Assembly: GCA_024639325.1 (NCBI GenBank) | Contig: JAHEIO010000004.1 | Location: 8,801-72,800, forward strand | Direction of reading: 5' to 3' | Origin: Gammaproteobacteria bacterium | GTDB taxonomy: Bacteria; Pseudomonadota; Gammaproteobacteria; Arenicellales; JAANXG01 | Length of the DNA: 64,000 nt | In this document: positions 15,923-63,986 of the stretch, piece after piece | How the letters are laid out: each line of letters begins with the position of its first letter | Position numbering within the stretch: the stretch's first letter is position 1 | Program-made: the position numbers and the translations under genes | Notes under the pieces: generated by a model | Databases searched by the model: none | Seen by the model: the letters and a program-made list of their open reading frames with translations, nothing else | Told to the model about the DNA's origin: nothing

Positions 15923-16942
15923 ATGGGCCAATCCTCATCGCGCAGCATTCTTCTGGTCGACGACGATCAAATCATTTTGGACACCCTGGGCTACGGCCTG
16001 CAGAAGTCGTCCTACATCGTCACGCAATGCGGCTCTGCGCGAGACGCGCTTGAACAGTACACCAGCTCACCACCGGATCTCGCCATTATCGACATTGGCC
16101 TGCCCGATATGAGAGGCACCGAATTGGCAGAGCAGTTGCTTCTGTATCGGTATCGCCCGATCTTGATCCTGTCCAGCCACAGTGAACCGGAGTGGATCGA
16201 CCGGGCAATCGGGTCCGGCGCCATCGGTTATCTGGTAAAACCCCTGACCCCGTCGCAGCTCATCCCAAGCATCGAGACGGCGTTGGCAAGATTCGGTGAC
16301 ATCAATCAAAGCATCGCCGGCAATTTCGCCAAAGGGGATATATCGGAGTCTCAGCTACGAGCGGCGATGGACCAGTTTTCTTTCGGTATCGTGATCATCG
16401 ACCAGGATCGTCGGATCATCCTATGCAACAGCGTTGGGCAAAGGTTCCTGGGCGACGCCAGACTCCTCAGGAACGCCAGTGGTAAATTGAAAACCACCGT
16501 GAGGAACGATCAGCTGACGGCCCTGCTTGATCAAAGCCTAGGCGAAATCAACGGCCATTCCGCACCCGCCGCGTTCTGCATGCACGACGACATAAATGAA
16601 AAGACAACCCAAATATGGGCGACACCGCTGCATGTCCCGGGGCACGGCACGGAACAGACCGCGATCGTGATCATCAACGACTCATCTCACAACACCGCTG
16701 TTCCATCATTTCTGTTCAAGAGCATGTATGGATTTACTGAAAAGGAATGCAAGCTGGCACACGCTCTGACAAATGGCGTGTCGATTAACCAATACTGCGA
16801 AAAAGTGTACGTCACGCCCAATACCGCGCGTACGCACCTGAAATCCATCTATCGCAAAACTTCGACTAATCGACAGGCGGAACTGATCTGTCTCCTGTCC
16901 CGTTTATATATCAACCTGACCGATGGGAACGGCGAAGACTAG
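15923..16942 (+). CDS. Response regulator with receiver, PAS-like middle and LuxR-type HTH domains (orphan)
   Basis: REC motifs (ILLVDDD, DLAIIDIGLPDMRG, GYLVKP). The middle region resembles a PAS fold (FGIVIIDQDRRIILCN). The C-terminal LuxR HTH reads FTEKECKLAHALTNGVSINQYCEKVYVTPNTARTHLKSIYRK. Confidence 0.8.
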   Translation: MGQSSSRSILLVDDDQIILDTLGYGLQKSSYIVTQCGSARDALEQYTSSPPDLAIIDIGLPDMRGTELAEQLLLYRYRPILILSSHSEPEWIDRAIGSGAIGYLVKPLTPSQLIPSIETALARFGDINQSIAGNFAKGDISESQLRAAMDQFSFGIVIIDQDRRIILCNSVGQRFLGDARLLRNASGKLKTTVRNDQLTALLDQSLGEINGHSAPAAFCMHDDINEKTTQIWATPLHVPGHGTEQTAIVIINDSSHNTAVPSFLFKSMYGFTEKECKLAHALTNGVSINQYCEKVYVTPNTARTHLKSIYRKTSTNRQAELICLLSRLYINLTDGNGED

Positions 16943-19900
16943 CCTGTATATCCTGTTTGACGCCAACGATTTGGCGTGATCCCGCGAAGACCTCACCGGT
17001 CCGGCCATGAATCGAGAGCACGTCGCCGGCGTGTACGGTGTGGGCGGGGTCGCCGTTGGCGTCCACCAGGATAGCCTCTGCCGGAGCCACCCGCAGTTCC
17101 GCCACGCCCAGGACCGCGCTGTAGGGTCTGTCTTCGATGCCATGCACGGCGACCGCGGCGTGCGACGTCGAGCCGCCTCGAGCCGCCAGCAGCCCGCCCA
17201 CTGAAAGGATCAACGGAATTTCGTCGGGAACCGGATTTTCCAGAACCAGCAGCACCCCATCCACTTCCTGACCGGGGTCGTGCATCGTCTCTGTGAGACG
17301 CTTGACATCCGCCTCGTCGAAGGCGACCAGCCCGCGGTAAGCACCGCCGCTGATGCCAATGCCGCGCCCCCCTGGCGCGCCCGGGTCGTCGAACGTACGG
17401 GGACTGTACTGCATTTCCACCTGTGCGCTACGTGCCTGCAGCACGCTCAGCACGCCGCGGTCAACGGTGAATTCGATCTCCGCATCGGAGCCGAGGTAGC
17501 GGCGCAGGCGAGCGCTGATGTGGTTCAGTTTGCGTTCGAGCATCGGCGCCAGGGAATGCAGACGCTGCACCGGCTCAAAGGATTTCGCCGCCGTCAGCCC
17601 CCCCACCAGGTCATCGCCACAGGCACTAAATTTCACATCTCCGGTGAACGCGCGAAATCCGCAGACCTGCATGCGCGTCTTGGGAATCACACCGGTGAGT
17701 GACATGCGCATCTCGTCCATTCCCGGCTGTAATTCCTCTGTATTAGACCGGTTGCCCGATGCCATCTGCTGCACGATCGCCGCCGTATGCCATCCCTCGC
17801 TCAGATGCTTGATGGCCCGGTAGCGGCGCGCCCGTTCCCGGTTCCAGGAGGTGTGCACCGCCCCCAGGGCGGTGTGCAACTGATGTTCAACGCTGCCAAG
17901 AATCGCCTCCAGCTGATCCGCGTAGCCCGCATCCCGAATCGCGTCCTTCGAAGATTCGACCACCTCGCGCATGGCCACTCCCGAAAGCTGGGTCTTGAGC
18001 GCCGCATTGTTGCGACGCTTGGCTTGTTCGACCAGACCCAGTGGCTCGAGGTCCAGTTGCCACACGGCCGAGGCATAAGACACCAGGAAGCGCCGGTAGG
18101 CATCCCATGCATACCACTCGTCATCGCGTGCCAAGGCCTCCGCCACCGCGTCGGTCATGCCGACGAAAACCACCGTCGCCAGCATGCCCGGCATCGAGAA
18201 CACGGAGCCGCCGCGCACGGCGAGCAGCAGCGGCGCATCGGCATCACCGAGATGCAAGGGTGTCCCCTCATTGCGAGCGATGTCATCCTCGAGTAGCTGT
18301 AAGTGCCGCAATACTTCGCGCTCGAAGCGCCTCCGGTCGCTGTTGTGCAGGCCCAGACGCGGCAGCACCGTCGGGATAATGAAGCCGTCTCGCGTTGGGA
18401 TGCCGAGATAGGCAATGTAGATCAGCCCGCTGCCTTTGCCCCCGTAGCGCGCCTGCAGGCTGACGGATTCCCGGTTCTCGACCCGGTCCACGATATCTTG
18501 CGTGTGCGACAGGTGAACGAAGTCCCACGGTCCCTCACCGGCACTCCCTTGACCCGCCCAGGACAGATCACTGCCGCATTCAGAGATATATTCCCGCGCC
18601 AAGTCCGAAAAGTGCACAAGGCTGTTCAGGTCATGCATCGTGCGCTGGAAGTTGGCCAGCACCCCACGCATTTCGTCGTCTGCATAGCCCAGCTGCCCGG
18701 CCATGACTTCGTAAGCTTCGCTGACACGTTTCACCAATCGGTGGTAGTTGCGTTGAATCTGGGCAAGCACGTCGAGCAGTTCGGACGGCGCCCGCTCCGC
18801 ATTGACCAGCATCACCGACAGGTCCCACAGTTCGCGCGAGAACAGACCATCCTGCTCCAGGCTGCCGGCACACAGGTGCACGATGCGCAAACACTCTTCC
18901 AGTGCCACACCCCGCTCCATGTAGCCCGAAGCGACGTGTCTCAAGGCGAGAAACCCCAACTCCTCCAAAAGACAATCGAGCTGATATAAAAGATAGCGCT
19001 GGCTGGTGAAGACGCCGCTGCCGACCAAGGACTCGAGTTCGCGTCGCAGCGCACAGCTGCGTTCGAACGCATCAAACGGTGCGCCACCTCGATAACGTTC
19101 GAGCAGCTCGTCTAGCGAGGCAAATAGGGCGTCCTGGTGGTGATGACGCATCCCCCGGCAGAACGCATTCACCGCCGTGCGCGCGTCGCGTTCGACCTCG
19201 TCGGCAGGAAATCCGGCTTCGTCTGGCATGACCTCCTGCAAATGCTTCAGGCTCTTTTCAAACGGCTCGCGGACATCGTCCGGCCAGGCGCCGTCCCTCA
19301 GCTTGCTCGCAAAGCTGCCTAGACGATGCTGATAGACCCACCGGTTACCTGCCCGAATGCCATTGGCAACCAGGGATTCGAGCTCCTCGTCCAGGATTTT
19401 TGTCGATTCGCAGCGCACCAGTTCGTCCGCGTAAGTATTGCGCCACTCGACAAGGCGCTGCGCAATTTGCGAACTGTCCAGGAGCTGCTCGAGATTGACG
19501 ATGACACGCTTCACCAGTTCCAACGCCCCGCTGCACGATCGGGCAGCTTCATCGGCCGGGCCGGGAACCTCCCTGGCCGCGTCCGGAAAATCCGCTTCGC
19601 CGGTCTGCAGCCATTGCCGGTATGCGCGCGCCAGGTCGAGTGTGTGTTTGCCCATCGCATGGTGCGTGCTTCTTCGGATTTCGTTGGTTATCGCACTGCC
19701 GCGCACGTGCACCTCGGCAAGATCGATCGTATCCTGCCAGACTTCGTCGATCAGCTTGGGCCGCGACACCAAACCCGAGATACTGCGGACAAGTATGCGT
19801 GTCGGCAATCGCAGACGGGATGCAAATGGGCCGTTCATGAATTCTGCCAGCTGGTCGCGGACAAGCCTGATTTCGGGCCGGAGATTCTTGGCGCCCGGCA

Positions 19901-20513
19901 TTCCGCGGTACGACGCGCCGCAAAGCCGCGCCACCATGAAACGCAATAGATACACTGCCTCGTGGCGGCTGCCGCAGGTATTCAGGCGCCTGAGTACGCC
20001 GGCCAGATCGCGCAGGCGGGCAACCTGAATGGCGGGCATATCGTCGATCTCCAGGTGATAGATATCACGCTCGAGGTCAATGGCGTCTCCCTGCAGTCCA
20101 GCGAGTGCGGCAACCAGGGCATCCGTGATCAAGGTTCCGTGAGGCAGCTGCAGCTGCGCGATGAGATACTCCGAATTTCCTTGCAGCGCGTATATCGACA
20201 ACCTGCCGTGCGCATCGTAAGGTACTATCAGCGTATCTCCAGCTCTGAAGACTCGATGATTGGCGACTTCGAACAGCCTGTAGCGTTGGCCAAGGAAGGT
20301 CATCGTTTGCAGGTAGCGGCGCAACGCGCAGTTGTGCTCGTCCTCATTGCCCCGTGGGCCATAAGCGGCGAACAGCGCGCTATTCAATGCGCTGATATGC
20401 TCACGCTCTTGCACACTGAAAGGTTCCTCTTTGCCGGGAACCGAATTCACCATCGGGATGCGGGGCGCGCAGATACCGAAGCCATCTGGTCGGCCTTTAC
20501 CAGTGATGTTCAT
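16911..20513 (-). CDS. PPDK/PEP-synthase-family dikinase-like protein with ~670-aa unassigned N-terminal region and no PEP/pyruvate TIM-barrel domain
   Basis: ATP-grasp nucleotide-binding region (RYGGKGSGLIYI...GFIIPT, LLLAVRGGSVFSMPGMLATV, YRRFL, AIVQQM) from about aa 689. The C-terminal swivel phosphohistidine domain reads GGLLAARGGSTSHAAVAVHG, with the His codon at 17160-17162. The ORF ends about 80 aa after it. Confidence 0.75.
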   Translation of the reverse strand: MNITGKGRPDGFGICAPRIPMVNSVPGKEEPFSVQEREHISALNSALFAAYGPRGNEDEHNCALRRYLQTMTFLGQRYRLFEVANHRVFRAGDTLIVPYDAHGRLSIYALQGNSEYLIAQLQLPHGTLITDALVAALAGLQGDAIDLERDIYHLEIDDMPAIQVARLRDLAGVLRRLNTCGSRHEAVYLLRFMVARLCGASYRGMPGAKNLRPEIRLVRDQLAEFMNGPFASRLRLPTRILVRSISGLVSRPKLIDEVWQDTIDLAEVHVRGSAITNEIRRSTHHAMGKHTLDLARAYRQWLQTGEADFPDAAREVPGPADEAARSCSGALELVKRVIVNLEQLLDSSQIAQRLVEWRNTYADELVRCESTKILDEELESLVANGIRAGNRWVYQHRLGSFASKLRDGAWPDDVREPFEKSLKHLQEVMPDEAGFPADEVERDARTAVNAFCRGMRHHHQDALFASLDELLERYRGGAPFDAFERSCALRRELESLVGSGVFTSQRYLLYQLDCLLEELGFLALRHVASGYMERGVALEECLRIVHLCAGSLEQDGLFSRELWDLSVMLVNAERAPSELLDVLAQIQRNYHRLVKRVSEAYEVMAGQLGYADDEMRGVLANFQRTMHDLNSLVHFSDLAREYISECGSDLSWAGQGSAGEGPWDFVHLSHTQDIVDRVENRESVSLQARYGGKGSGLIYIAYLGIPTRDGFIIPTVLPRLGLHNSDRRRFEREVLRHLQLLEDDIARNEGTPLHLGDADAPLLLAVRGGSVFSMPGMLATVVFVGMTDAVAEALARDDEWYAWDAYRRFLVSYASAVWQLDLEPLGLVEQAKRRNNAALKTQLSGVAMREVVESSKDAIRDAGYADQLEAILGSVEHQLHTALGAVHTSWNRERARRYRAIKHLSEGWHTAAIVQQMASGNRSNTEELQPGMDEMRMSLTGVIPKTRMQVCGFRAFTGDVKFSACGDDLVGGLTAAKSFEPVQRLHSLAPMLERKLNHISARLRRYLGSDAEIEFTVDRGVLSVLQARSAQVEMQYSPRTFDDPGAPGGRGIGISGGAYRGLVAFDEADVKRLTETMHDPGQEVDGVLLVLENPVPDEIPLILSVGGLLAARGGSTSHAAVAVHGIEDRPYSAVLGVAELRVAPAEAILVDANGDPAHTVHAGDVLSIHGRTGEVFAGSRQIVGVKQDIQASLRRSHRSG

Positions 20514-36348: not shown

Positions 36349-37524
36349 ATGTCGCGCAGCCATTTATTCACCTCGGAATCCGTGTCCGAGGGGCATCCGG
36401 ACAAGGTCGCAGACCAGATATCAGATGCTATCCTAGACGCTCTGCTGGATGGAGACCCGTTATCACGGGTCGCGTGCGAGACCTTGATCAACACCGGAAT
36501 GGTTGTCCTCTGCGGAGAAATCACATCTAAAACGAACGCGGACTATACCGAAGTTGTGCGGAAAACTGTAAATGAAATCGGCTACAACTCTTCCAATATG
36601 GGATTCGATGCAAACTCCTGCGCGGTCATCGTCTCCCTCGACAAGCAGTCCGCTGATATTGCCCAGGGCGTGAACGAGGGCGAGGGGCTGGACCTGGATC
36701 AGGGCGCGGGAGACCAGGGCCTCATGTTTGGCTACGCCTGCAATGAAACCGACAGCCTGATGCCGTTCCCCATCGACTATGCACACCGGCTGGTAAAACA
36801 ACAATCCGTCGTCAGAAAATCGGGCAAGCTGTGGTGGCTGCGCCCCGACGCAAAGTCTCAGCTCACCGTTCGCTACGAGGACGGCAAACCGGTCGCGGTG
36901 GATACCGTTGTGCTGTCCACTCAGCACACGCCTGATATTGAGCACAAGGACCTGGCCGAGGCCGTGATCGAGGAGATCATCAAGCCGGTGCTTCCATCAG
37001 GCATGGTCGGCAGCGAGACGAAATACCTGGTAAATCCCACCGGCCGATTCGTGGTTGGCGGACCGGTGGGCGATTGCGGTTTAACCGGGCGGAAGATCAT
37101 CGTCGATACCTACGGCGGCGCCGCGCATCACGGCGGCGGTGCGTTCTCCGGCAAAGATCCTTCAAAAGTCGATCGTTCCGCCGCATACGCCCTCAGGCAC
37201 GTTGCAAAGAATGTGGTTGCCGCCGGACTGGCCGATCGATGCGAGGTGCAGGTGGCTTACGCGATCGGGGTAGCACAACCGGTATCCCTGACGGTGAATA
37301 CATTCGGAACCGCCGCGTTGCCGGAGGAACAAATCGAAATCCTGATTCGCGAGCACTTCGACCTTCGCCCCAAGGCGATCATTCAGGAGCTCGATCTTCT
37401 GCGCCCGATTTACAGAAGCACCGCGGCCTATGGTCATTTTGGACGATCTGATCCTGAATTTACCTGGGAATATACCGACAAGGCCCAGGCATTGAGCGAC
37501 GCGGCGGGCATAAAAGTGGCCTGA
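36349..37524 (+). CDS. metK: S-adenosylmethionine synthetase
   Basis: Contains [36 protein letters not shown] and [16 protein letters not shown]. Confidence 0.97.
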
Positions 37525-45330: not shown

Positions 45331-45450
45331 GCCGCTTGAGGAGCGCTGCAACCCGCCATCCGGCTGTTTCCGGCTGGCCGGCCAGGCTCAAGCGGATTCG
45401 GGAAAAACCCGAATAACGGCGCTCACTCGTGCTCTGAAAAGAGTGAGGAG
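45331..45450 (+). promoter_or_regulatory. SAH (S-adenosylhomocysteine) riboswitch with SD-sequestering expression platform, controlling ahcY
   Basis: Conserved core CTTGAGGAGCGCTGCAACC...GGCCAGGCTCAAG...AACGGCGCTCAC. P1 is CTTGAG (45335-45340) paired with CTCAAG (45387-45392). GAGCGC/GCGCTC forms the pseudoknot pairing. Downstream, CTCACTC (45422-45428) can pair with GAGTGAG (45441-45447), which overlaps the GAGGAG SD. Confidence 0.8.
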
Positions 45451-45456
45451 TGACAA

Positions 45457-46872
45457 ATGAGCGTAGTTGCGCAAGACATGGTTTCCGATTACTTCGTGGC
45501 CGACCTTTCCCAGGCCGATTTTGGCAGAAAGGAAATAGCCATCGCCGAGACGGAGATGCCCGGACTGATGGCAACCCGGGAGGCATACACCGCGGACAAG
45601 CCCCTGCAGGGTGCGCGCATAGCCGGTTCCCTGCACATGACCATCCAGACGGCGGTACTGATCGAGACGCTGGTATCGCTCGGGGCGGAAGTCCGCTGGG
45701 CGTCCTGCAATATTTTTTCCACCCAGGATCACGCCGCAGCTGCAATCGCTGCGCAAGACATTCCGGTGTTCGCCTACAAGGGCGAATCCCTGGAGGAGTA
45801 CTGGGAATTCACTCATCGCATAATGCAATGGCCGGACGGCGAAACGCCGAACATGATCCTCGACGACGGTGGGGACGCAACCCTGCTGGTGATCCTCGGT
45901 GCCCGGGCGGAGTCCGACCCCTCCGTGCTGGACAATCCGACAAGTGAAGAGGAACGTTTGCTTTACGCGGCCATCAAGAAGAGGCTTAACGCCAAACCGG
46001 GCTTCTACTCCAACATCCTCAATAACATCAAGGGTGTTACGGAGGAAACTACGACCGGAGTCAAGCGCCTCTATCAGATGCAGGCACAGGGAGAGCTTCC
46101 CTTCCCCGCGATAAACGTCAACGATTCGGTGACCAAGTCGAAGTTCGACAATCTCTATGGTTGCCGCGAATCACTGGTGGACGGCATCAAGCGGGCTACG
46201 GACGTGATGATCGCGGGCAAGATCGCCGTGGTCGCCGGTTACGGTGACGTCGGCAAGGGTTGTGCACAATCACTGCGCGGCCTGGGGGCAACTGTCTGGG
46301 TTACGGAAATCGATCCGATATGCGCCCTGCAGGCCGCAATGGAAGGCTATCGCGTGGTCACCATGGACGACGCCGCAGACAAGGCAGACATTTTCGTGAC
46401 GGCTACCGGCAACTACCACGTGATCTCTCACGATCACATGCTGGCCATGAAGGACCAGGCTATCGTCTGCAATATTGGCCACTTCGACAACGAGATCGAT
46501 GTCGCTTCGGTAGAGGGTTACGGATGGGACAACATCAAGCCCCAGGTTGACCATGTCATTTTCCCCAACGGCAGGCGGATCATCCTGCTGGCGCAGGGAC
46601 GGCTGGTAAATCTCGGCTGCGCAACCGGTCACCCGAGTTTTGTGATGTCGAATTCGTTTACCAATCAGGTGCTGGCGCAAATCGAGCTGTGGTCCCGTGG
46701 GGATCAGTACGGAAACGAGGTCCACACTCTGCCGAAGAAACTGGATGAGCAGGTGGCCCGCCTGCACCTCAAGAAAATCGGTGCGGCGCTAACTGAAATG
46801 ACACCGCAACAATCCGACTATATCGGCGTGGCACCGGATGGGCCATACAAACCAGAGCATTACCGGTATTAG
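45457..46872 (+). CDS. ahcY: Adenosylhomocysteinase
   Basis: 471 aa with [23 protein letters not shown] and the NAD-binding [12 protein letters not shown] motif. It ends PEHYRY. Confidence 0.96.
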
Positions 46873-57494: not shown

Positions 57495-58088
57495 TTACAC
57501 CCGTTCCCTGCGCCAGACCAGGGTCTGGTTGTTGGCCGGCATCGGAATGTCTTCGAGGAGCGAAAGCCCTTGTGCCGCTGCCAGGGCATCGACGGCTTCG
57601 AAGTCCCGGACGCCCATTTTCGAATCCTGCGCCCGCAACGACTGATCGAAGCGGGAATTGCTAGTGCTGGTAAAAGCTCCATCATAGCGGAACGGGCCAT
57701 AAACACATAGGGTCCCTGGGCGGCGCAGCGTACTGCCCACACCGCGGAAAAACTCCTCCACTTCCGGCCACGACATGATATGCAGGGTGTTGGCGCTGAA
57801 TATTCCGTCCACGTCAATCCCCCAGGGCTGGTTGCGGACATCGAGTTCGACAGGCGCATCGATATTGTCTGGCCCCTCCTGTTTCAGCCTTTGTTCGATC
57901 CATTGGATGGCGCCCGGTTTGTCGCTTGGCAGCCAGGTCAGGTGGGGCAGGTTTCGAGCGAAATACACCGCGTGCTGCCCGGTGCCACAGCCGATTTCGA
58001 GAACGATTCGGGTATCGGCGAATACCTCCTTCAGGACCCCGAGTATCGGCGCTTTGTTACGATCGCAGGCCTCGGAATTGGGCAGCAA
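57495..58088 (-). CDS. DUF938-family class I methyltransferase-like protein
   Basis: Contains CDRNKAPILGVLKEVF...VLEIGCGTGQHAVYFA...WLPSD...ANTLHIMSW, the characteristic DUF938 layout. Confidence 0.7.
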   Translation of the reverse strand: MLPNSEACDRNKAPILGVLKEVFADTRIVLEIGCGTGQHAVYFARNLPHLTWLPSDKPGAIQWIEQRLKQEGPDNIDAPVELDVRNQPWGIDVDGIFSANTLHIMSWPEVEEFFRGVGSTLRRPGTLCVYGPFRYDGAFTSTSNSRFDQSLRAQDSKMGVRDFEAVDALAAAQGLSLLEDIPMPANNQTLVWRRERV

Positions 58089-58100
58089 GTCCGCTTGCCC

Positions 58101-58979
58101 TCAGCGCCCGGACAGGCCGAGCAGCTCGGCCGCACGGGAAGGTTCGACGATATCGGCGCCGACTTCGCGCACGAGCCGAACGGCGCGCTCCACCAGTTGT
58201 GAATTCGACGCAAATTCGCCCTTGGCAAGATACAGATTGTCTTCGAGGCCCACCCTCACGTTGCCGCCTCGACTCACACACTGGGCCACTATCTGAAACT
58301 CCCAGCGCGAAATACCGAACGCTCCCCAGCAGGCGCCGTCCGGCAAGAGACCCTGCATCACGGAGAGCACTTCGGGCGTCGCCGGGGAAGCGTGGGGAAT
58401 GCCAAGGCACAACTGAAACATGGGCGGCTCAGCGATCAAGCCTTCTTCGATCATGCGCTTTGCAAAAACAATATGCCCCGGTTCGAACACCTCGAGCTCA
58501 GGTTTGACTCCCAACTCCCGAATGCGCGCAGCCATCGTCCGCAGGTGAGCGGGGGTGTTGACGAAGATCTGCTCGCCGAAATTGAACGTGCCGACATCGA
58601 GCGTACAGATATCCGGCAGAAGTTCCTCGACGTGCGCCAGCCTTTGCAGAGGATGAATCAGGGTGGTGCCCGGACCACCGGTCTTCGGATCGATATCGCC
58701 CGGCACGAATCGTGCACCTTCGCTCGTGGTGAGATTGACGAGCACGTCGCTGCCGGCGTCCCGTATTCGGGCAACGACCTCACGATACAAAGCCGGATCA
58801 CCGGACCGCATGCCGGTTTCGGGATCGCGCACGTGAATATGGGCGATGGCGGCACCCGCTCGCCGCGCCGCCAGACAGGACTCCGCGATCTGCTGCGGAG
58901 TAATGGGATAGTCAGGATGCTTATGAAAATTCGCGTGCCCGCCGGTTACGGCACATGTGACAATGACTTCCTGGGGCAT
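58101..58979 (-). CDS. Beta-keto acid cleavage enzyme (BKACE, DUF849; 3-keto-5-aminohexanoate cleavage enzyme family)
   Basis: Contains VIVTCAVTGG...PITPQQIAESCLAARRAGAAIAHIHVRDPETG, TIM-barrel BKACE signature residues. Confidence 0.8.
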   Translation of the reverse strand: MPQEVIVTCAVTGGHANFHKHPDYPITPQQIAESCLAARRAGAAIAHIHVRDPETGMRSGDPALYREVVARIRDAGSDVLVNLTTSEGARFVPGDIDPKTGGPGTTLIHPLQRLAHVEELLPDICTLDVGTFNFGEQIFVNTPAHLRTMAARIRELGVKPELEVFEPGHIVFAKRMIEEGLIAEPPMFQLCLGIPHASPATPEVLSVMQGLLPDGACWGAFGISRWEFQIVAQCVSRGGNVRVGLEDNLYLAKGEFASNSQLVERAVRLVREVGADIVEPSRAAELLGLSGR

Positions 58980-59068: not shown

Positions 59069-60292
59069 CTAGATGATGCGTTCCGAGCGAAGCGCACCTA
59101 TCGCATCCTGGTCCAGTCCCAGCACGTCCTGCAACACCTCATCGGTGTGCTCGCCGAGAAGCGGCGGAGGCATCCTGTATTCTACCGGCGTCTCCGACAA
59201 TTTGAACGGGCTGCCTACCAGCGGCACCCTGCCGGCAAGGGCGTGATCCATTTCTACCCGCATCTGGCGAGACACGGTCTGAGGATCGGAGAATGTCTGG
59301 TCCAGAGTGTAAATGGGACCACAGGGGATGTTTTGTTCTTCGAGCAGTTGCATCCACTCGCGCGATGCCCTGACCCTCACCAGCGGCTCCAGGATTGCGA
59401 CCAGTCTTTCGCGGTTGCGGACGCGCTCCCGATTGGTTTGAAAATCCGGTTCGTCCGCGAGATCTTCTCTGTCCAGCAGCCTGCAGAACCTCCTGTACTG
59501 GTCATCGTTACCCACCGCAATGATTAAAAAGCCGTCTCTGCTGGCAAAAACCTGGTACGGCACGATGTTCGGGTGTGCGTTTCCAAGCCGGCCGGGGGGC
59601 TTACCAGAAACCAGATAGTTCATCGCCTGGTTGGCCATGGCTGCGAGCTGACAGTCCAGCAAAGCCAAGTCGATGTACTGCCCCCGACCGGTGAGTTCGC
59701 GGTGCAGCAGCGCGGCCTGGATTGCATTCCCAGCGTACAATCCCGTAAGGATATCCGCAACCGCAACGCCTACTTTCTGGGGCCCACCGCCTGGCAGCGT
59801 GTCCTTTTCGCCCGTGATGCTCATAAGGCCCGACATCGCCTGAATCATGAAATCGTATCCAGGCCGCTGGGCGCTCGGACCGGATTGCCCGAATCCCGTA
59901 ATGGAGCAGTACACCAGGCCGGGGTTTATCTGTCGCAGGGCCTCATAGTCGAGATCGTACCTGATCAGCCCGCCGACCTTGTAATTCTCAATGAGAACAT
60001 CGCTCAACGCGGCAAGGCCGCGTATCAGTTCCTGTCCCTCGGGCCGAGTGATATCTATGGTGACCGACCGCTTGTTCCGGTTGGCGGACAGGAAGTACCC
60101 CGGTTCACTGGTGTCCCTCCCATCCGCATCCTTGAGGTAGGGCGGGCCCCAGCTCCGAGTGTCATCGCCGCGGCCGGGGCGTTCGATCTTGATTACATCG
60201 GCGCCCAGATCCGCGAACATCTGTCCTACCCAGGGTCCGGCCAGCACCCGGCTCATATCGAGCACCCTGAGGTGGGATAAGGCGCCGGTCAT
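59069..60292 (-). CDS. Family III CoA-transferase (CaiB/BaiF/Frc family)
   Basis: Contains LRVLDMSRVLAGPWVGQMFADLGADVIKIERPGRGDDTRSWGPP in 407 aa. Confidence 0.88.
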   Translation of the reverse strand: MTGALSHLRVLDMSRVLAGPWVGQMFADLGADVIKIERPGRGDDTRSWGPPYLKDADGRDTSEPGYFLSANRNKRSVTIDITRPEGQELIRGLAALSDVLIENYKVGGLIRYDLDYEALRQINPGLVYCSITGFGQSGPSAQRPGYDFMIQAMSGLMSITGEKDTLPGGGPQKVGVAVADILTGLYAGNAIQAALLHRELTGRGQYIDLALLDCQLAAMANQAMNYLVSGKPPGRLGNAHPNIVPYQVFASRDGFLIIAVGNDDQYRRFCRLLDREDLADEPDFQTNRERVRNRERLVAILEPLVRVRASREWMQLLEEQNIPCGPIYTLDQTFSDPQTVSRQMRVEMDHALAGRVPLVGSPFKLSETPVEYRMPPPLLGEHTDEVLQDVLGLDQDAIGALRSERII

Positions 60293-60334: not shown

Positions 60335-60961
60335 TCAGGGCCGGCCTGCCAGCGCGGTGCCAATCATGCTGTCACGCGATACCAGTGAGGCGAGCTCCGA
60401 TTCGCTCATGCCCTCGGTTTCCGCGGGACGCATGGGAATCACGATATACCTGAGTTCCGCCGTCGAGTCGTGCACCCGGACTTCCACACCTGTTGGAATC
60501 TCGGTACCGAATTCCCGCAGCACCGCACGCGGTTCCCTGACCACTCGCGAGCGGTAGGCCTTGCTCTTGTACCAGACCGGGGGGCGCCCGAGCAGAAAGC
60601 GTGGGTAGCACGAACAGAGGGTACACACCACCAGGTTGTGCACCTCGGGCGTATTTTCGACTGCCGTCAATACGGCGTAACCCGGATCCAGACCCAGACT
60701 CTCCACGGCCGACATGCCGTCTTTCAACAGAAAAGCCTTGTATTCGGGATCCACCCAGGCCCGGGCGACGACCCGGGCGCCGTGAGTGTTCGGTTCGATG
60801 TTTTCGATGGACTCGATCATCGCGTTCATTTCAGCGTTGTCGTAAATCCCTTTACTGACCAGCAGGTCATTGAGCGCAATACCCATCAATTCATGATGGG
60901 AGCTGGGCTCGGGGTGGTCCGTTTGCAAGGGGTGCTTATGGGAATGATGTTCGTCGGTCAT
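60335..60961 (-). CDS. Nitrile hydratase family alpha subunit, cobalt type (SCNase gamma / ToyJ equivalent)
   Basis: The metal-binding claw VVCTLCSCYP is followed by PPVWYKSKAYRSRVVREPRAVLREFG. The ATG at 60961 follows the upstream TGA by 1 nt. The N-terminus is His-rich (MTDEHHSHKHPLQTDHPEPSSHHE). Confidence 0.85.
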   Translation of the reverse strand: MTDEHHSHKHPLQTDHPEPSSHHELMGIALNDLLVSKGIYDNAEMNAMIESIENIEPNTHGARVVARAWVDPEYKAFLLKDGMSAVESLGLDPGYAVLTAVENTPEVHNLVVCTLCSCYPRFLLGRPPVWYKSKAYRSRVVREPRAVLREFGTEIPTGVEVRVHDSTAELRYIVIPMRPAETEGMSESELASLVSRDSMIGTALAGRP

Positions 60962-60962
60962 G

Positions 60963-61250
60963 TCAGCATCTCGCGGATTCCAGCCAGTGTTCGAATATTT
61001 CGATCTCCAGCGAATCGCCATTCGGCCCTTCATATCCGGGCCAGAGTCGAGTCTGGGGAATATGAATTCGATAAACCGTCTGTATCGGTTCCCCATCCTC
61101 ACCGAGGGCCAGCGTTTCCGGCTGACCCTGTGCGGCACAGATGCGCTCCACCACGCCCTCGTGGCCCTTGACGTAGGCAGGGACGCGGTGGTGTCTGGCT
61201 TCTTCACGGTCGGATATCCGCACCCGGTCACCGATTGCGAACCTGGCCAT
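60963..61250 (-). CDS. Nitrile hydratase family beta subunit, C-terminal-half polypeptide
   Basis: 95 aa from the ATG at 61250. MARFAIGDRVRI...HHRVPAYVKGHEGVVE...VYRIHIPQTRLWPG...LEIEIFEHWLE matches the SH3-like C-terminal half of NHase beta. Confidence 0.75.
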   Translation of the reverse strand: MARFAIGDRVRISDREEARHHRVPAYVKGHEGVVERICAAQGQPETLALGEDGEPIQTVYRIHIPQTRLWPGYEGPNGDSLEIEIFEHWLESARC

Positions 61251-61570
61251 CAGCCGGCTGATTCCTTGAGCTCCGCCACGCGCCGGTCGAGTTCTTCCCT
61301 CGACACCACGCCCCGCCGGATCATGAGCGCCGCGGTTGCCGCGGCCCATCTCTCGTAGTAGCTCAGGCGCTCGTAGGCATCCGGCCCCAGCGACTCGATT
61401 TGGTGCCGCATCTCGGCCCAGTCCCTGACCATGCCTTTCTTGAACAGCAGGTACACCATGGCGTCCATACGCCGCTCCCAGAAGGTGTAGTCGTGGCTGG
61501 CACGATCGATGTCACCACCTGGCATGCCACCGACGTCGTGCGGACCGATGGGCTGCGGTTTGTCGGACAC
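61250..61570 (-). CDS. Nitrile hydratase family beta subunit, N-terminal-half polypeptide
   Basis: 106 aa with GPHDVGGMPG, FWERRMDAMVYLL and LSYYERWAAATAALMIRRGVVSREEL, the N-terminal helical half of NHase beta. The stop overlaps the next start (TGATG). Confidence 0.75.
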   Translation of the reverse strand: MSDKPQPIGPHDVGGMPGGDIDRASHDYTFWERRMDAMVYLLFKKGMVRDWAEMRHQIESLGPDAYERLSYYERWAAATAALMIRRGVVSREELDRRVAELKESAG

Positions 61571-61715: not shown

Positions 61716-63986
61716 TCAACCATGCAGTGCATTCACCAGCTTGTTTGTCGCGGCAAGGCGGCTGGCCACGAGACGCACCACAAAAGCGTGAAATTCAGCC
61801 TCCAACGCCGGGTCTTCTTTCATCTTCTCCATTGCTTTCTTAGTCAGACAGTAGACCACCGAAGGAACTTCGGCTACGACCGATGCTGAACGGGGAATGC
61901 CAAGATACAGCGCTACCTCACCCACCACCGTGCCGGCCCCCATAGTGTGCACCCTGACGGGCTCCTGGCTTCTCATTTCGAACTGGACGGTGACGCGGCC
62001 GGACTCGATGAAATACAGGTCAGACGAATCATCCCCCTGACGGATCAGATATTCCCCTTCCTCGACATACTGCAGGTCGAGATAAGTCATAAGAAGCGCG
62101 GCCTTGTCGCGGTTCGAGAGCTGCCTGGACAACCTGTCGAATAATCGCATCTCCACCACCCCGGCATTGCGCGGGACGGCGTCGAGCAGTTGCTGTTCGC
62201 ACCACTCCAGACCCCGGTCGGTGTTCGAAAAAACCTGAATCACAGGATCATCCTGCTCGATCACCTCGCCCCTCGACAGGCTCGAAAGGATTTCCCCGGA
62301 CAGGCTCGTCATCAGGATTCTGAATCCGGCCTGTTCAGCCAGATGCTTCATCCTGATGAAGCTGCTCACGGTTGACGTATCGACATCGCTGACATTGCGA
62401 AAATCCAGGATGAGATATCCAAGCGCGGGCCGCGATCGATCAGCCAGCCGCTCCTTGACCCAGGTCAGGACCTTATGTGATGTGCCGAAGAATATGAAGC
62501 CTTCGAGAACCAGCAGGCAGATCCGGTCGCCCTGATCGATCAGAATCCTCTGCGATTCACCGTCGCGCTCTACATTGCTGTGATAGTCGACCCCGGAAAG
62601 AGCGTGCTTGATGACGTCGACCCGGCTGTAGTTGAAGACGAATATGATTGCGCCCGCGAAAATGCCGACCGTGATCCCCTGCAGATAGCCCACCGATGCC
62701 GACACCAGGAGACACAGTATGACCACGGTGTAATCGGCCCGGGGCAGTTTGAACCAGCCCTCGTACACCCACTCGATCATCAGGATCAATCCGAAGAACA
62801 GGATGAAGCCACCAAGCAGAGTCTTGGGCAGGTAGGACAGAAACGATATGCCGAACACCAGCGCCAGCAGGCACACGAGCGCCGTTATGATCCCGGTGAT
62901 ACGATAAGATGCGTTGATCTCCCGTGCCAGAAGGGAATCCTCCACCGAGTGCGAGCCGGTCACCCCACCACCCAGCGCGGCCACCACATTCGCAATTCCC
63001 GCGGAAACAAGTTCGCGGTTCAGATCCATGTCCCGCTTCATCACGACTTCTATGCCGGTCGCGCTCAGCAGCAGCCCGAGCAGGCATAGCAGTATTAAGC
63101 TGCCCACGCTATCCGCCTGGGCGGCGACCAGGCCCCAGTCGACGCGATGGAGCATCGAGGTATCCATCGTGACCCATAGAGATTGGTCGGGAAAAGGACC
63201 CACCAGCCATCCGCCGGCCTCCAGTTCCTCCACCGACAAACCGAATACTCCGGTCAACAGATAAAACAGCCCAATCGCAATCGCGAACATGGCCGGCAGG
63301 ACGAGGTAATGACTGGACGTACGCGTAGCAATGACCAGCGCCACGCCAAACACCGCGCCTGGCAGCCACCGGACGACGTTACCCGGCTGCATCAGGGATG
63401 GCAGGGTGTTCATATCGATGTCCTGGTCGATCATGACGCCAAAGGCACCGACCACGATCAACCAGCCCATAGTCACGACCACGCCCCCAACGACCGGGAG
63501 GGGAATGAATCGCACCAGGTTTCCCAGCTTGAATTGTCCCAGTACAAGAAAGACCAGGCCGGACAGTAGCGTCGAAACCACGACCACGACCATGACCGTA
63601 GTGAAAACAAGCTCGGCATCCGTCGACGGCGGCATACTGGCGGCAAGCGCGGAGGCTGCCAGGCTGAGTATGATCGCGGCGGCTTCGTCGGAACCGGCAA
63701 TCATGCCCGGATAGGAACTCATCAACGCCAAGACAAGTGCCAAAACCGTCGAACCGAACAGGAAATAGCCGGTACCCCGCACCAGGAAAGGTTCGAGTAC
63801 GCCGTTGAAAACCAGGGCGGCAATGGTTACGGACCACAGCACCATCGTGGCCCCGATGATCAGCCCTGCAAACAGGGCCGGCAGCAGCCGCGATGGCCGG
63901 ATCTCCTGTCTCAACTCCGACAGCACGCGCGACACCGGGGAAGAGTACGTCATGGTCCGGGAATTCGAGACACGATTACTGTTCAA
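61716..63986 (-). CDS. SulP-family anion transporter fused to STAS and a C-terminal cyclic-nucleotide-binding domain
   Basis: The polytopic SulP core covers about 450 aa. The STAS region reads YLILDFRNVSDVDTSTVSSF. The cNMP-binding beta-roll reads YLIRQGDDSSDLYFIESGRVTV...GAGTVVGEVALY...RSASVVA. Confidence 0.88.
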   Translation of the reverse strand: MNSNRVSNSRTMTYSSPVSRVLSELRQEIRPSRLLPALFAGLIIGATMVLWSVTIAALVFNGVLEPFLVRGTGYFLFGSTVLALVLALMSSYPGMIAGSDEAAAIILSLAASALAASMPPSTDAELVFTTVMVVVVVSTLLSGLVFLVLGQFKLGNLVRFIPLPVVGGVVVTMGWLIVVGAFGVMIDQDIDMNTLPSLMQPGNVVRWLPGAVFGVALVIATRTSSHYLVLPAMFAIAIGLFYLLTGVFGLSVEELEAGGWLVGPFPDQSLWVTMDTSMLHRVDWGLVAAQADSVGSLILLCLLGLLLSATGIEVVMKRDMDLNRELVSAGIANVVAALGGGVTGSHSVEDSLLAREINASYRITGIITALVCLLALVFGISFLSYLPKTLLGGFILFFGLILMIEWVYEGWFKLPRADYTVVILCLLVSASVGYLQGITVGIFAGAIIFVFNYSRVDVIKHALSGVDYHSNVERDGESQRILIDQGDRICLLVLEGFIFFGTSHKVLTWVKERLADRSRPALGYLILDFRNVSDVDTSTVSSFIRMKHLAEQAGFRILMTSLSGEILSSLSRGEVIEQDDPVIQVFSNTDRGLEWCEQQLLDAVPRNAGVVEMRLFDRLSRQLSNRDKAALLMTYLDLQYVEEGEYLIRQGDDSSDLYFIESGRVTVQFEMRSQEPVRVHTMGAGTVVGEVALYLGIPRSASVVAEVPSVVYCLTKKAMEKMKEDPALEAEFHAFVVRLVASRLAATNKLVNALHG

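Follow-up and report, generated by a model that had tools for sequence, protein, structure and literature searches.

Gene organization at the locus

The stretch of 64,000 nucleotides (nt) analyzed here, taken from contig JAHEIO010000004.1 of an uncultured gammaproteobacterium and referred to below as the window, carries on its minus strand three adjoining genes that very probably encode a functional three-subunit cobalt hydratase of the nitrile hydratase (NHase) family. The first gene (61570..61250) begins with a GTG start codon and encodes a protein of 106 amino acids (12.2 kDa), which corresponds to the N-terminal half of the NHase beta subunit (beta-N). It is followed by the gene for the C-terminal, SH3-like half (beta-C; 61250..60963; 95 amino acids, 10.8 kDa) and by the gene for the alpha subunit (60961..60335; 208 amino acids, 23.1 kDa), the catalytic, metal-binding chain. 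A first-pass annotation of this DNA had proposed three minus-strand open reading frames (ORFs) of these lengths and had assigned them to a three-gene, split-beta, cobalt-type NHase family. All three ORFs and the quoted peptides were found, their Pfam domains match, and the family assignment was borne out by Pfam, NCBIfam and PDB matches to all three chains.

Beta-N matches the Pfam model PF21006 (NHase_beta_N; E 5.9e-21) and the NHase beta chains in the PDB (E about 1e-7). Beta-C matches PF02211 (NHase_beta_C; E 1.4e-17) and, each at E 1.3e-9, residues 129-219 of 3qxe_B and residues 35-126 of the alpha chain of thiocyanate hydrolase (SCNase; 2dd4_A). The NCBIfam model TIGR03888 is matched by beta-N at positions 3-99 of 226 (65.3 bits) and by beta-C at positions 137-226 (66.5 bits), with a cut-off of 152.2 bits. 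For the alpha subunit, the match to PF02979 (NHase_alpha) reaches E 3.4e-78, the NCBIfam equivalog TIGR01323 is passed narrowly (254.1 bits vs. a cut-off of 249.85), and the best match to solved cobalt-type NHase alpha chains in the PDB has an E-value of 3e-61. The same cassette was called on an independent Logan assembly. Chance is excluded by these E-values together with the identical three-gene calls in independent assemblies. A precursor of an NHLP-type ribosomally synthesized and post-translationally modified peptide, suggested by a weak match of alpha to TIGR03793, was rejected, with alpha being full-length and its metal claw intact.

The two gene junctions were read as previously annotated. 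At TGATG (61252-61248, minus strand), the stop codon of beta-N and the start codon of beta-C share one A, and at TGAcATG (60965-60959, minus strand) a 1-nt spacer separates beta-C from alpha. Purine-rich stretches precede the gene starts, which, in combination with this stop/start layout, is typical of translational coupling. The alpha frame remains open upstream across beta-C, resulting in a longer ORF at 60335-61231 on the minus strand. In a relative with 96% alpha identity, the gene caller's alpha has 228 amino acids (P0001), with 20 extra upstream residues that overlap beta-C. As the homologs start at MTD(E/H)H, this longer alpha is almost certainly a start-codon miscall.

Conservation of the split beta subunit

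Canonical beta subunits are single chains, and the two halves in the window lie in different frames and abut exactly, as might be expected of a frameshift pseudogene or an assembly error of one beta gene. Related loci, however, exhibit the same division. The layout beta-N, beta-C, alpha was found in 21 of 21 distinct related loci examined, and the split loci span Gamma-, Beta- and Alphaproteobacteria, Dehalococcoidia, Actinomycetota and cyanobacteria, that is, at least six phyla or classes in independent assemblies. Two beta ORFs are present in every relative with readable gene context. These include the metagenome-assembled genome (MAG) “uncultured Gammaproteobacteria FCS_Gamma_070” (96% alpha identity), an Arenicellales MAG (75%), further relatives at 74%, 74%, 73%, 68%, 68%, and 65% alpha identity, and more distant loci from genome scans. 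The split layout also exists on plasmids of isolates, namely of Streptomyces sp. NBC_01176 and Planktothrix agardhii PCC7805.

The way in which the genes are joined varies between lineages. The beta-N/beta-C junction is TGATG in four lineages (window, L002, L050, and L004), a 4-nt overlap (ATGA) in L003 and a 14-nt overlap in L052 and L053, while the alpha start is offset from the beta-C end by anything from a 4-nt overlap to a 12-nt spacer. Because the junction types differ, one indel is ruled out as the cause of the split, and the ortholog comparison gave no fused beta that would point to a single-base indel at 61248-61252. The linker of fused beta subunits (TIGR03888 positions 100-136) is absent from the split proteins and not frame-shifted. 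In comparison with the 96% relative, the ratio of nonsynonymous to synonymous substitution rates amounts to 0.31 (beta-N), 0.06 (beta-C), and 0.15 (alpha); both beta halves are under purifying selection.

The probability of a pseudogene or an assembly error is consequently regarded as close to nil, and a decayed or mis-sequenced beta gene is already refuted by the comparison of orthologous gene sequences. The first-pass annotation had favored translational coupling over decay, for which the conserved split, the varied junctions and the substitution ratios speak as well, and conservation of the split in orthologs was confirmed at 96%, 75%, 74%, 73%, and 68% alpha identity and in the distant loci. 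Programmed frameshifting that yields a fused beta was considered separately and rejected, as overlap length and frame relation vary by lineage and the linker is absent.

Most of the database matches listed for beta-N are short proteins. A word-indexed search with beta-N yielded 140 matches, and the 120 listed are all 91-163 amino acids long and carry PF21006 only. An exhaustive phmmer search with beta-N over 1.84 billion cluster representatives (at 50% identity) gave 220 matches at E <=1e-10; among the best 150 of these 220 representatives, 126 have at most 160 amino acids. Some database proteins of about 200 amino acids show tandem beta-N matches, and others of 300-500 amino acids fuse beta-N to another part (examples of tandem or fused proteins include the representatives P0257 and P0260).

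Active-site residues and comparison with classical NHases

In the claw motif of NHases, Thr and Tyr mark cobalt, Ser and Thr mark iron. The window alpha subunit carries, as read from the sequence, the metal claw and the residues following it as V112-C113-T114-L115-C116-S117-C118-Y119-P120-R121 (60628..60599, minus strand). Thr114 and Tyr119 are the cobalt-type residues, and the cobalt-type claw VCTLCSCY named in the first-pass annotation is located at alpha residues 112-119 (nt 60628-60605). Arg121 occupies the place of a Trp in classical cobalt-type NHases (Co-NHases). Beta-N contributes Arg55 and the motif Y71-Y72-E73-R74-W75, and beta-C contributes Arg22 within HHRVPAYVKG. Arg22 was aligned with the arginine of the HTR motif of fused beta subunits and, like Arg55 and Tyr71 of beta-N, aligns to conserved fused-beta residues that contact the oxidized cysteines.

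Both beta arginines (Arg55, Arg22) and the Tyr71/Tyr72/Trp75 cluster do not vary within the family. W31, E32, R55, E59, Y66, and Y71-W75 are 100% invariant across 121 stand-alone beta-N proteins, and among 121 alphas conservation of the claw residues and of R121 is 95% or higher. Tyr40, Trp51, and Met54 of beta-N were aligned with beta-Phe37, Leu48, and Phe51, which line the pocket of the Pseudonocardia thermophila enzyme (PtNHase), and are highly variable across the family, as diverse substrates would predict. The alpha subunit starts with a His-rich tail (MTDEHHSHKHPLQTDHPEPSSHHE; 60890..60961, minus strand) with seven His among the first 30 residues. At least four His are found in the alpha N-terminus of 114 of the 120 closest homologs, loosely following the motif HxHPHK/RHPxQxDHPEP, and this tail may serve in cobalt capture in enzymes that lack an accessory protein. 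The alpha subunit of the Pseudomonas putida NHase has a His-rich N-terminus, too.

Classical Co-NHases (P. thermophila, P. putida NRRL-18668, Bacillus) match the window alpha at E 3e-61 to 3e-52, with about 50% identity in two alignments and an identical claw, and their beta subunit contains the same arginine pair and tyrosine. In contrast to the window enzyme, their beta subunit is one chain of about 220 amino acids with a linker of roughly 25-40 residues, and CSCYP is followed by Trp instead of Arg. In many of the sampled loci with the order beta-alpha, alpha is immediately followed by a third gene, for a beta-N-like accessory protein, whereas the window has none.

A clade of split loci with a CSCYPR motif

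For a phylogenetic comparison, 47 loci were sorted by gene order and by the state of beta, with the beta-N and beta-C matches either within a single ORF or on two. Five split loci and two scnC genes annotated by the Prokaryotic Genome Annotation Pipeline (PGAP), on Roseomonas marmotae p1318-8 and an Azospirillum ramasamyi plasmid, were added to the tree later. In the neighbor-joining (NJ) tree of alpha, the loci in which the genes run beta-N, beta-C, alpha all group in a single clade, which a midpoint root places apart from fused-beta and alpha-first loci. The split alpha clade including the added loci was recovered in 191 of 200 bootstraps, and in none of the 200 were the scnC genes excluded from it; the window's own subclade is separate from scnC (195 of 200). 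The first-pass annotation had named clustering of alpha inside ordinary two-subunit NHases, together with an amidase in the operon, as a finding that would refute its reading; alpha does not fall inside the two-subunit NHases of the NJ tree, and no amidase was found in the window.

The residue after CSCYP follows the same division. Of the beta-N/beta-C/alpha loci, 19 of 19 have CSCYPR, as do both scnC genes and 118 of the 120 closest homologs of alpha, and each of the 33 fused-beta or alpha-first loci has CSCYPW. Judging from these sequences, the layout beta-N, beta-C, alpha is ancient and widespread and recognizable from alpha alone (CSCYP-R vs. CSCYP-W), and thiocyanate hydrolase arose within the split CSCYPR clade. 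Both the clade and its marker are defined in this analysis and not taken from the literature; the Arg/Trp marker and the nesting of scnC were not found stated in the searchable open literature. They are modest refinements, resting on NJ trees and about 54 loci.

A second independent split was observed, in which the order is alpha, beta-N, beta-C in separate ORFs, the motif is CSCYPW and an extra beta-N-like accessory gene is often present. Such loci (L010, L014, L016, L017, L018, and L020, from Hydrogenophaga, Kiloniellaceae, Casimicrobiaceae, Rhodopila globiformis DSM 161, and others) group with alpha-first fused-beta NHases, outside the window clade. Some split loci also exhibit two beta-N-like genes (L007 4976-5272, L009 2721-2978, and L014).

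Comparison with thiocyanate hydrolase

SCNase (ScnB/ScnA/ScnC; PDB 2DD4) has its beta subunit split at the same place as the window enzyme, and the gene order, the cobalt-type claw and the Arg after CSCYP are all shared. The window enzyme might accordingly be a thiocyanate hydrolase itself, converting SCN- to COS and NH3 with a pocket arginine attracting the anion. In addition to the same order of beta-N-like, beta-C-like and alpha-like genes, alpha Arg121 maps ungapped to residue 136 of SCNase gamma (PDB 2DD4 chain C), the scnC genes annotated by PGAP have the CSCYPR motif and fall within the same clade, and a gene for a SulP-family anion transporter is located upstream in the window. However, this Arg is common to the whole clade including the Streptomyces enzymes and is not diagnostic, and the SulP gene is missing from close relatives. 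The window alpha scores 198.1 bits on the scnC equivalog TIGR03887, where the cut-off is 291.45, yet passes TIGR01323. Beta-N keeps I-E-S and S-Y-Y-E-R-W where the SCNase type, represented by the beta-like proteins adjoining annotated scnC genes, has A-N-D and P-Y-N-A-R-W. The chains of 106, 95, and 208 amino acids lack the extensions of those of SCNase (157, 126, and 243), and the separate position of the window subclade in the tree points in the same direction.

The gene context differs as well. CbtAB or HupE cobalt transporters and TauE are encoded at the SCNase loci, whereas a look through the window gave neither a cobalt transporter nor TauE nor any sulfur-oxidation gene. A context of cobalt uptake and sulfur/COS metabolism has been described for scnC loci (PMC5328954), and SCNase has an activator (reviewed in PMC7193024). 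A probable sulfur-oxidizer background, which the first-pass annotation had suggested, has no support in the gene content of the window, and no sulfur-oxidation genes were seen among its annotated ORFs. Taken together, we consider thiocyanate hydrolysis very unlikely and conclude from the sequence comparisons that the predicted enzyme is not a thiocyanate hydrolase.

PDB 3VYG, a second SCNase gamma sequence, scores 3.6 bits below 2DD4 over the same stretch; we take this entry to be the R136W mutant, and the drop is of the size expected for an R to W exchange at the aligned Arg. No paper on SCNase Arg136 or R136W was found in the open literature. On the plasmids of R. marmotae (L059 4428-6077) and A. 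ramasamyi (L060 4428-6070), scnC is preceded by a single ORF of 283 amino acids, which joins SCNase beta-like and alpha-like halves via a low-complexity Gly/Thr/Asn linker and looks like a secondary re-fusion. These scnC plasmid loci contain CbtA/CbtB or HupE/UreJ cobalt transporters and TauE and are flanked by insertion sequence elements.

Comparison with three-subunit NHases

In Streptomyces canus, AnhD, AnhE and AnhA correspond to beta-N, beta-C, and alpha of a cobalt-type NHase, and no activator is present in the genome (PMC7329996). AnhD acts as a cobalt and self-subunit-swapping chaperone, and the complex has the composition A2D2E2 (PMC7329996). This enzyme (ScNHase, strain CGMCC 13662) agrees with the window in gene order, cobalt type and the lack of an activator gene, and its subunits of 10.4, 11.35, and 21.3 kDa (PMC7329996) compare with 12.2, 10.8, and 23.1 kDa. 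Among characterized enzymes, AnhD-AnhE-AnhA is the closest analogue of the window enzyme. The sequence proxy used here, the plasmid locus of Streptomyces sp. NBC_01176, shares its layout and CSCYPR with the window, with 50% identity in alpha, 35% in beta-N, and 48% in beta-C. The hosts, Streptomyces and an uncultured gammaproteobacterium, differ, and the substrates of ScNHase (acetamiprid, thiacloprid, and benzonitrile) are xenobiotics and therefore give little information on the substrate in the window.

On the NBC_01176 plasmid (L057 5642-8092), three genes come after the split NHase: one for a channel of the aquaporin family, a hypothetical gene and one for a HoxN/HupN/NixA nickel/cobalt transporter. 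These neighbors would fit an enzyme that, in that Streptomyces, depends on cobalt and acts on a small neutral substrate.

The toyocamycin NHase (TNHase) ToyJKL of Streptomyces rimosus consists of PF02979, PF21006, and PF02211 subunits that form an (alpha-beta-gamma)2 complex (PMC8574189; bioRxiv 10.64898/2026.04.15.718813). The subunits have 21.2, 10, and 11.4 kDa (PMC8574189), and the genes lie within the toyA-M 7-deazapurine cluster (PMC12648386). The first-pass annotation had placed the subunit sizes nearer to ToyJKL than to SCNase, which proved correct (12.2/10.8/23.1 kDa vs. 10/11.4/21.2 kDa for TNHase and 157/126/243 amino acids for SCNase). A ToyJKL-type tailoring enzyme that hydrates a nitrile group on a nucleoside or on some other natural product would also have three subunits of similar size, and the homolog on the Planktothrix plasmid is situated among biosynthetic-looking genes (TauD, methyltransferase, GST, and AsnB). 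Nevertheless, the window lacks 7-deazapurine genes (QueC/D/E-like, GTP cyclohydrolase) or any other biosynthetic cluster, the neighboring genes are of housekeeping or small-molecule catabolic type, and the flat GC content provides no sign of an island. Such a tailoring function is considered extremely unlikely. The alpha subunit of toyocamycin NHase reportedly matures by itself, as described by Nelp and coworkers in 2014, a study that is also cited in PMC7329996.

To our knowledge, ToyJKL and ScNHase are the only three-subunit NHases that have been studied, and SCNase is the sole other characterized split-beta enzyme. A 2020 review lists six NHase gene organizations, and the split beta-N/beta-C/alpha order is not among them (PMC7193024); a 2025 review still regards the three-subunit form as peculiar to TNHase (PMC12648386). 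The Pfam models for the beta halves are already separate, while the RefSeq product name of several beta halves is just “SH3-like domain-containing protein,” so that surveys by product name can miss them. The split layout is therefore under-described, not new, and the window locus joins a large, already sampled clade. The first-pass annotation, which had known split beta chains only from SCNase and ToyJKL, overstated the rarity of the layout: a restriction to these two enzymes is refuted by AnhD-AnhE-AnhA and by hundreds of stand-alone beta-N clusters. Activator-independent three-subunit cobalt NHases are attractive biocatalysts, since their maturation needs no accessory protein that is hard to express. 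The window locus adds a split-beta member from an uncultured gammaproteobacterium, and current understanding is not overturned.

Proposed mechanism

According to what is known of the family, the alpha subunit would bind a non-corrin Co(III) via Cys113, Cys116, Ser117, and Cys118, with Cys116 oxidized to a sulfinate and Cys118 to a sulfenate. Beta-N would provide Arg55 and the Tyr71/Tyr72/Trp75 cluster and beta-C Arg22; both arginines would form hydrogen bonds with the oxidized cysteines, and the beta fragments would clamp the site from both sides. Hydration of a nitrile bound to the metal would then yield the amide. The overlapping stop and start codons are suggested to couple translation and thereby to supply the three chains in about equal amounts, which most likely assemble as (alpha, beta-N, beta-C)2, like toyocamycin NHase and ScNHase.

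Cobalt delivery might proceed without a dedicated protein. No accessory-protein gene was found in the 64-kb window, where accessory-like queries matched only beta-N. Accessory-like ORFs from fused-beta loci match the window beta-N at E 3e-8 to 4e-4, and TIGR03889 matches it at E 4e-4; beta-N is a distant relative of the Co-type accessory proteins. Since there is no accessory gene nearby and beta-N is distant kin of such proteins, we lean towards the view that beta-N is also a self-subunit-swapping cobalt chaperone, as is AnhD, and that the His-rich alpha tail may assist.

Several points weigh against the functional three-subunit cobalt hydratase proposed here. Neither beta half alone reaches the TIGR03888 cut-off for a single beta chain. 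ScNHase is likened to the window enzyme by layout, with the NBC_01176 locus standing in for the AnhDEA sequences themselves, and ToyJKL is likened by subunit sizes and domains, not by sequence, and is set apart by its gene context. The alpha trees are NJ trees of 182 columns and about 54 loci with a long scnC branch. A chaperone function of beta-N and a cobalt-related function of the alpha His tail are both extrapolated from a single study of one enzyme, and the mechanism as a whole is derived from homology and two characterized three-subunit NHases. Finally, the annotated ORFs of the window were found to include neither an amidase nor an aldoxime dehydratase as a partner, and a classical nitrile-assimilation pathway is therefore not evident. 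That the substrate cannot be read from the sequence, as stated in the first-pass annotation, is agreed.

A broader scenario, which we consider quite unlikely as a whole, would make the CSCYPR clade a functionally distinct, largely unstudied branch of the NHases, with SCNase as one specialized offshoot. In this scenario, the pocket Arg would suit anionic or heteroatom-bound C-N triple bonds, for example in cyano-amino acids, gamma-glutamyl nitriles, and cyanamide- or thiocyanate-like compounds, and beta-N would replace the accessory protein throughout the clade. In the lineage of the window, the enzyme together with GGT and an M20 peptidase would form a nitrile-to-acid route without a signature amidase.

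Genomic neighborhood

A family III CoA-transferase gene (59069..60292, minus strand; PF02515, E 2.6e-131) starts 42 nt downstream of alpha. Its product is close to SUGCT-type and CaiB/BaiF structures, and the gene is syntenic at 73-96% alpha identity and absent from more distant split loci. Next follows a gene for a beta-keto acid cleavage enzyme (BKACE; 58101..58979, minus strand; PF05853, E 1.4e-91), which passes no NCBIfam equivalog cut-off and matches PDB 3c6c at E 4e-87. For both genes, a link to the NHase is unproven, and together they look like a self-contained beta-keto-acid module. A DUF938 class I methyltransferase gene (57495..58088, minus strand; PF06080, E 6.2e-69) is a weak lead. 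Upstream of beta-N, across a gap of 145 nt, lies the SulP-STAS-cNMP anion transporter gene (61716..63986, minus strand; PF00916, PF01740, PF00027), which is found at the cassette only in the window lineage (L001 and L002). In L003 (5683-7263) and L050 (1219-2808), a GGT gene (PF01019) takes the place of SulP directly before beta-N.

At 73-96% alpha identity, a block of GGT, NHase, CoA-transferase, BKACE, DUF938, and LysE genes is conserved. It might indicate that the NHase is one step of a catabolic operon, which would also include an M20 peptidase; its substrate would be a nitrile with a gamma-glutamyl or carboxylate group, and the partner that cleaves the amide would be GGT or M20. The genes share one direction and are 12-89 nt apart, GGT and M20 being located upstream and the others downstream, and the conserved pocket Arg121 fits an anionic substrate. 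Beyond this block, the gene directly after alpha in a distant Rhodospirillales MAG (L041 5108-5946; 51% alpha identity) is GGT, and in Albimonas (L011 8263-8979) a DUF938 gene immediately precedes the split NHase. The recurrent adjacency of GGT and DUF938 provides leads and may reflect a functional link or coincidence. On the other hand, the synteny is limited to one lineage and is possibly an inherited gene order. Twelve other split loci, compared or read from gene tables, have unrelated neighbors, and the relative with 68% alpha identity is situated among transposases. In the window itself, the SulP gene lies between GGT and the NHase genes, and the self-sufficient CoA-transferase and BKACE module has no evident need for a nitrile step. 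De novo clustering of neighbors over the split loci revealed no family that is common beyond the window lineage, with the exception of GGT. Participation of the NHase in such an operon is therefore regarded as unlikely.

A promoter and terminator scan of the region from 56.5 to 64 kb gave the same counts as shuffled sequence, and the 145-nt leader upstream of beta-N does not fold significantly (z -1.05) and matches nothing in Rfam at E <=1. The rest of the window represents an ordinary gammaproteobacterial chromosome, with genes for PriA, ArgRS, propionyl-CoA carboxylase, methylmalonyl-CoA mutase, and a class III polyhydroxyalkanoate synthase as well as GlyRS, GlnA-NtrBC, MetK, AhcY, PepN, and an RND efflux system. 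The GC content is flat (0.52-0.61), with no hint of an island. Searching the literature by sample and assembly accession for the habitat gave no relevant paper.

Two features distant from the NHase genes were observed in addition. An ORF of 1200 amino acids (16911-20513, minus strand), which has no exact record in a large protein collection, shows weak matches to phosphoenolpyruvate-utilizing and PPDK_N domains near its C-terminus alone. An S-adenosylhomocysteine riboswitch (RF01057; 57.4 bits vs. a gathering score of 37) is found at 45332-45431 on the plus strand, directly upstream of the S-adenosylhomocysteine hydrolase gene (45457-46872), and MetK is encoded at 36349-37524.

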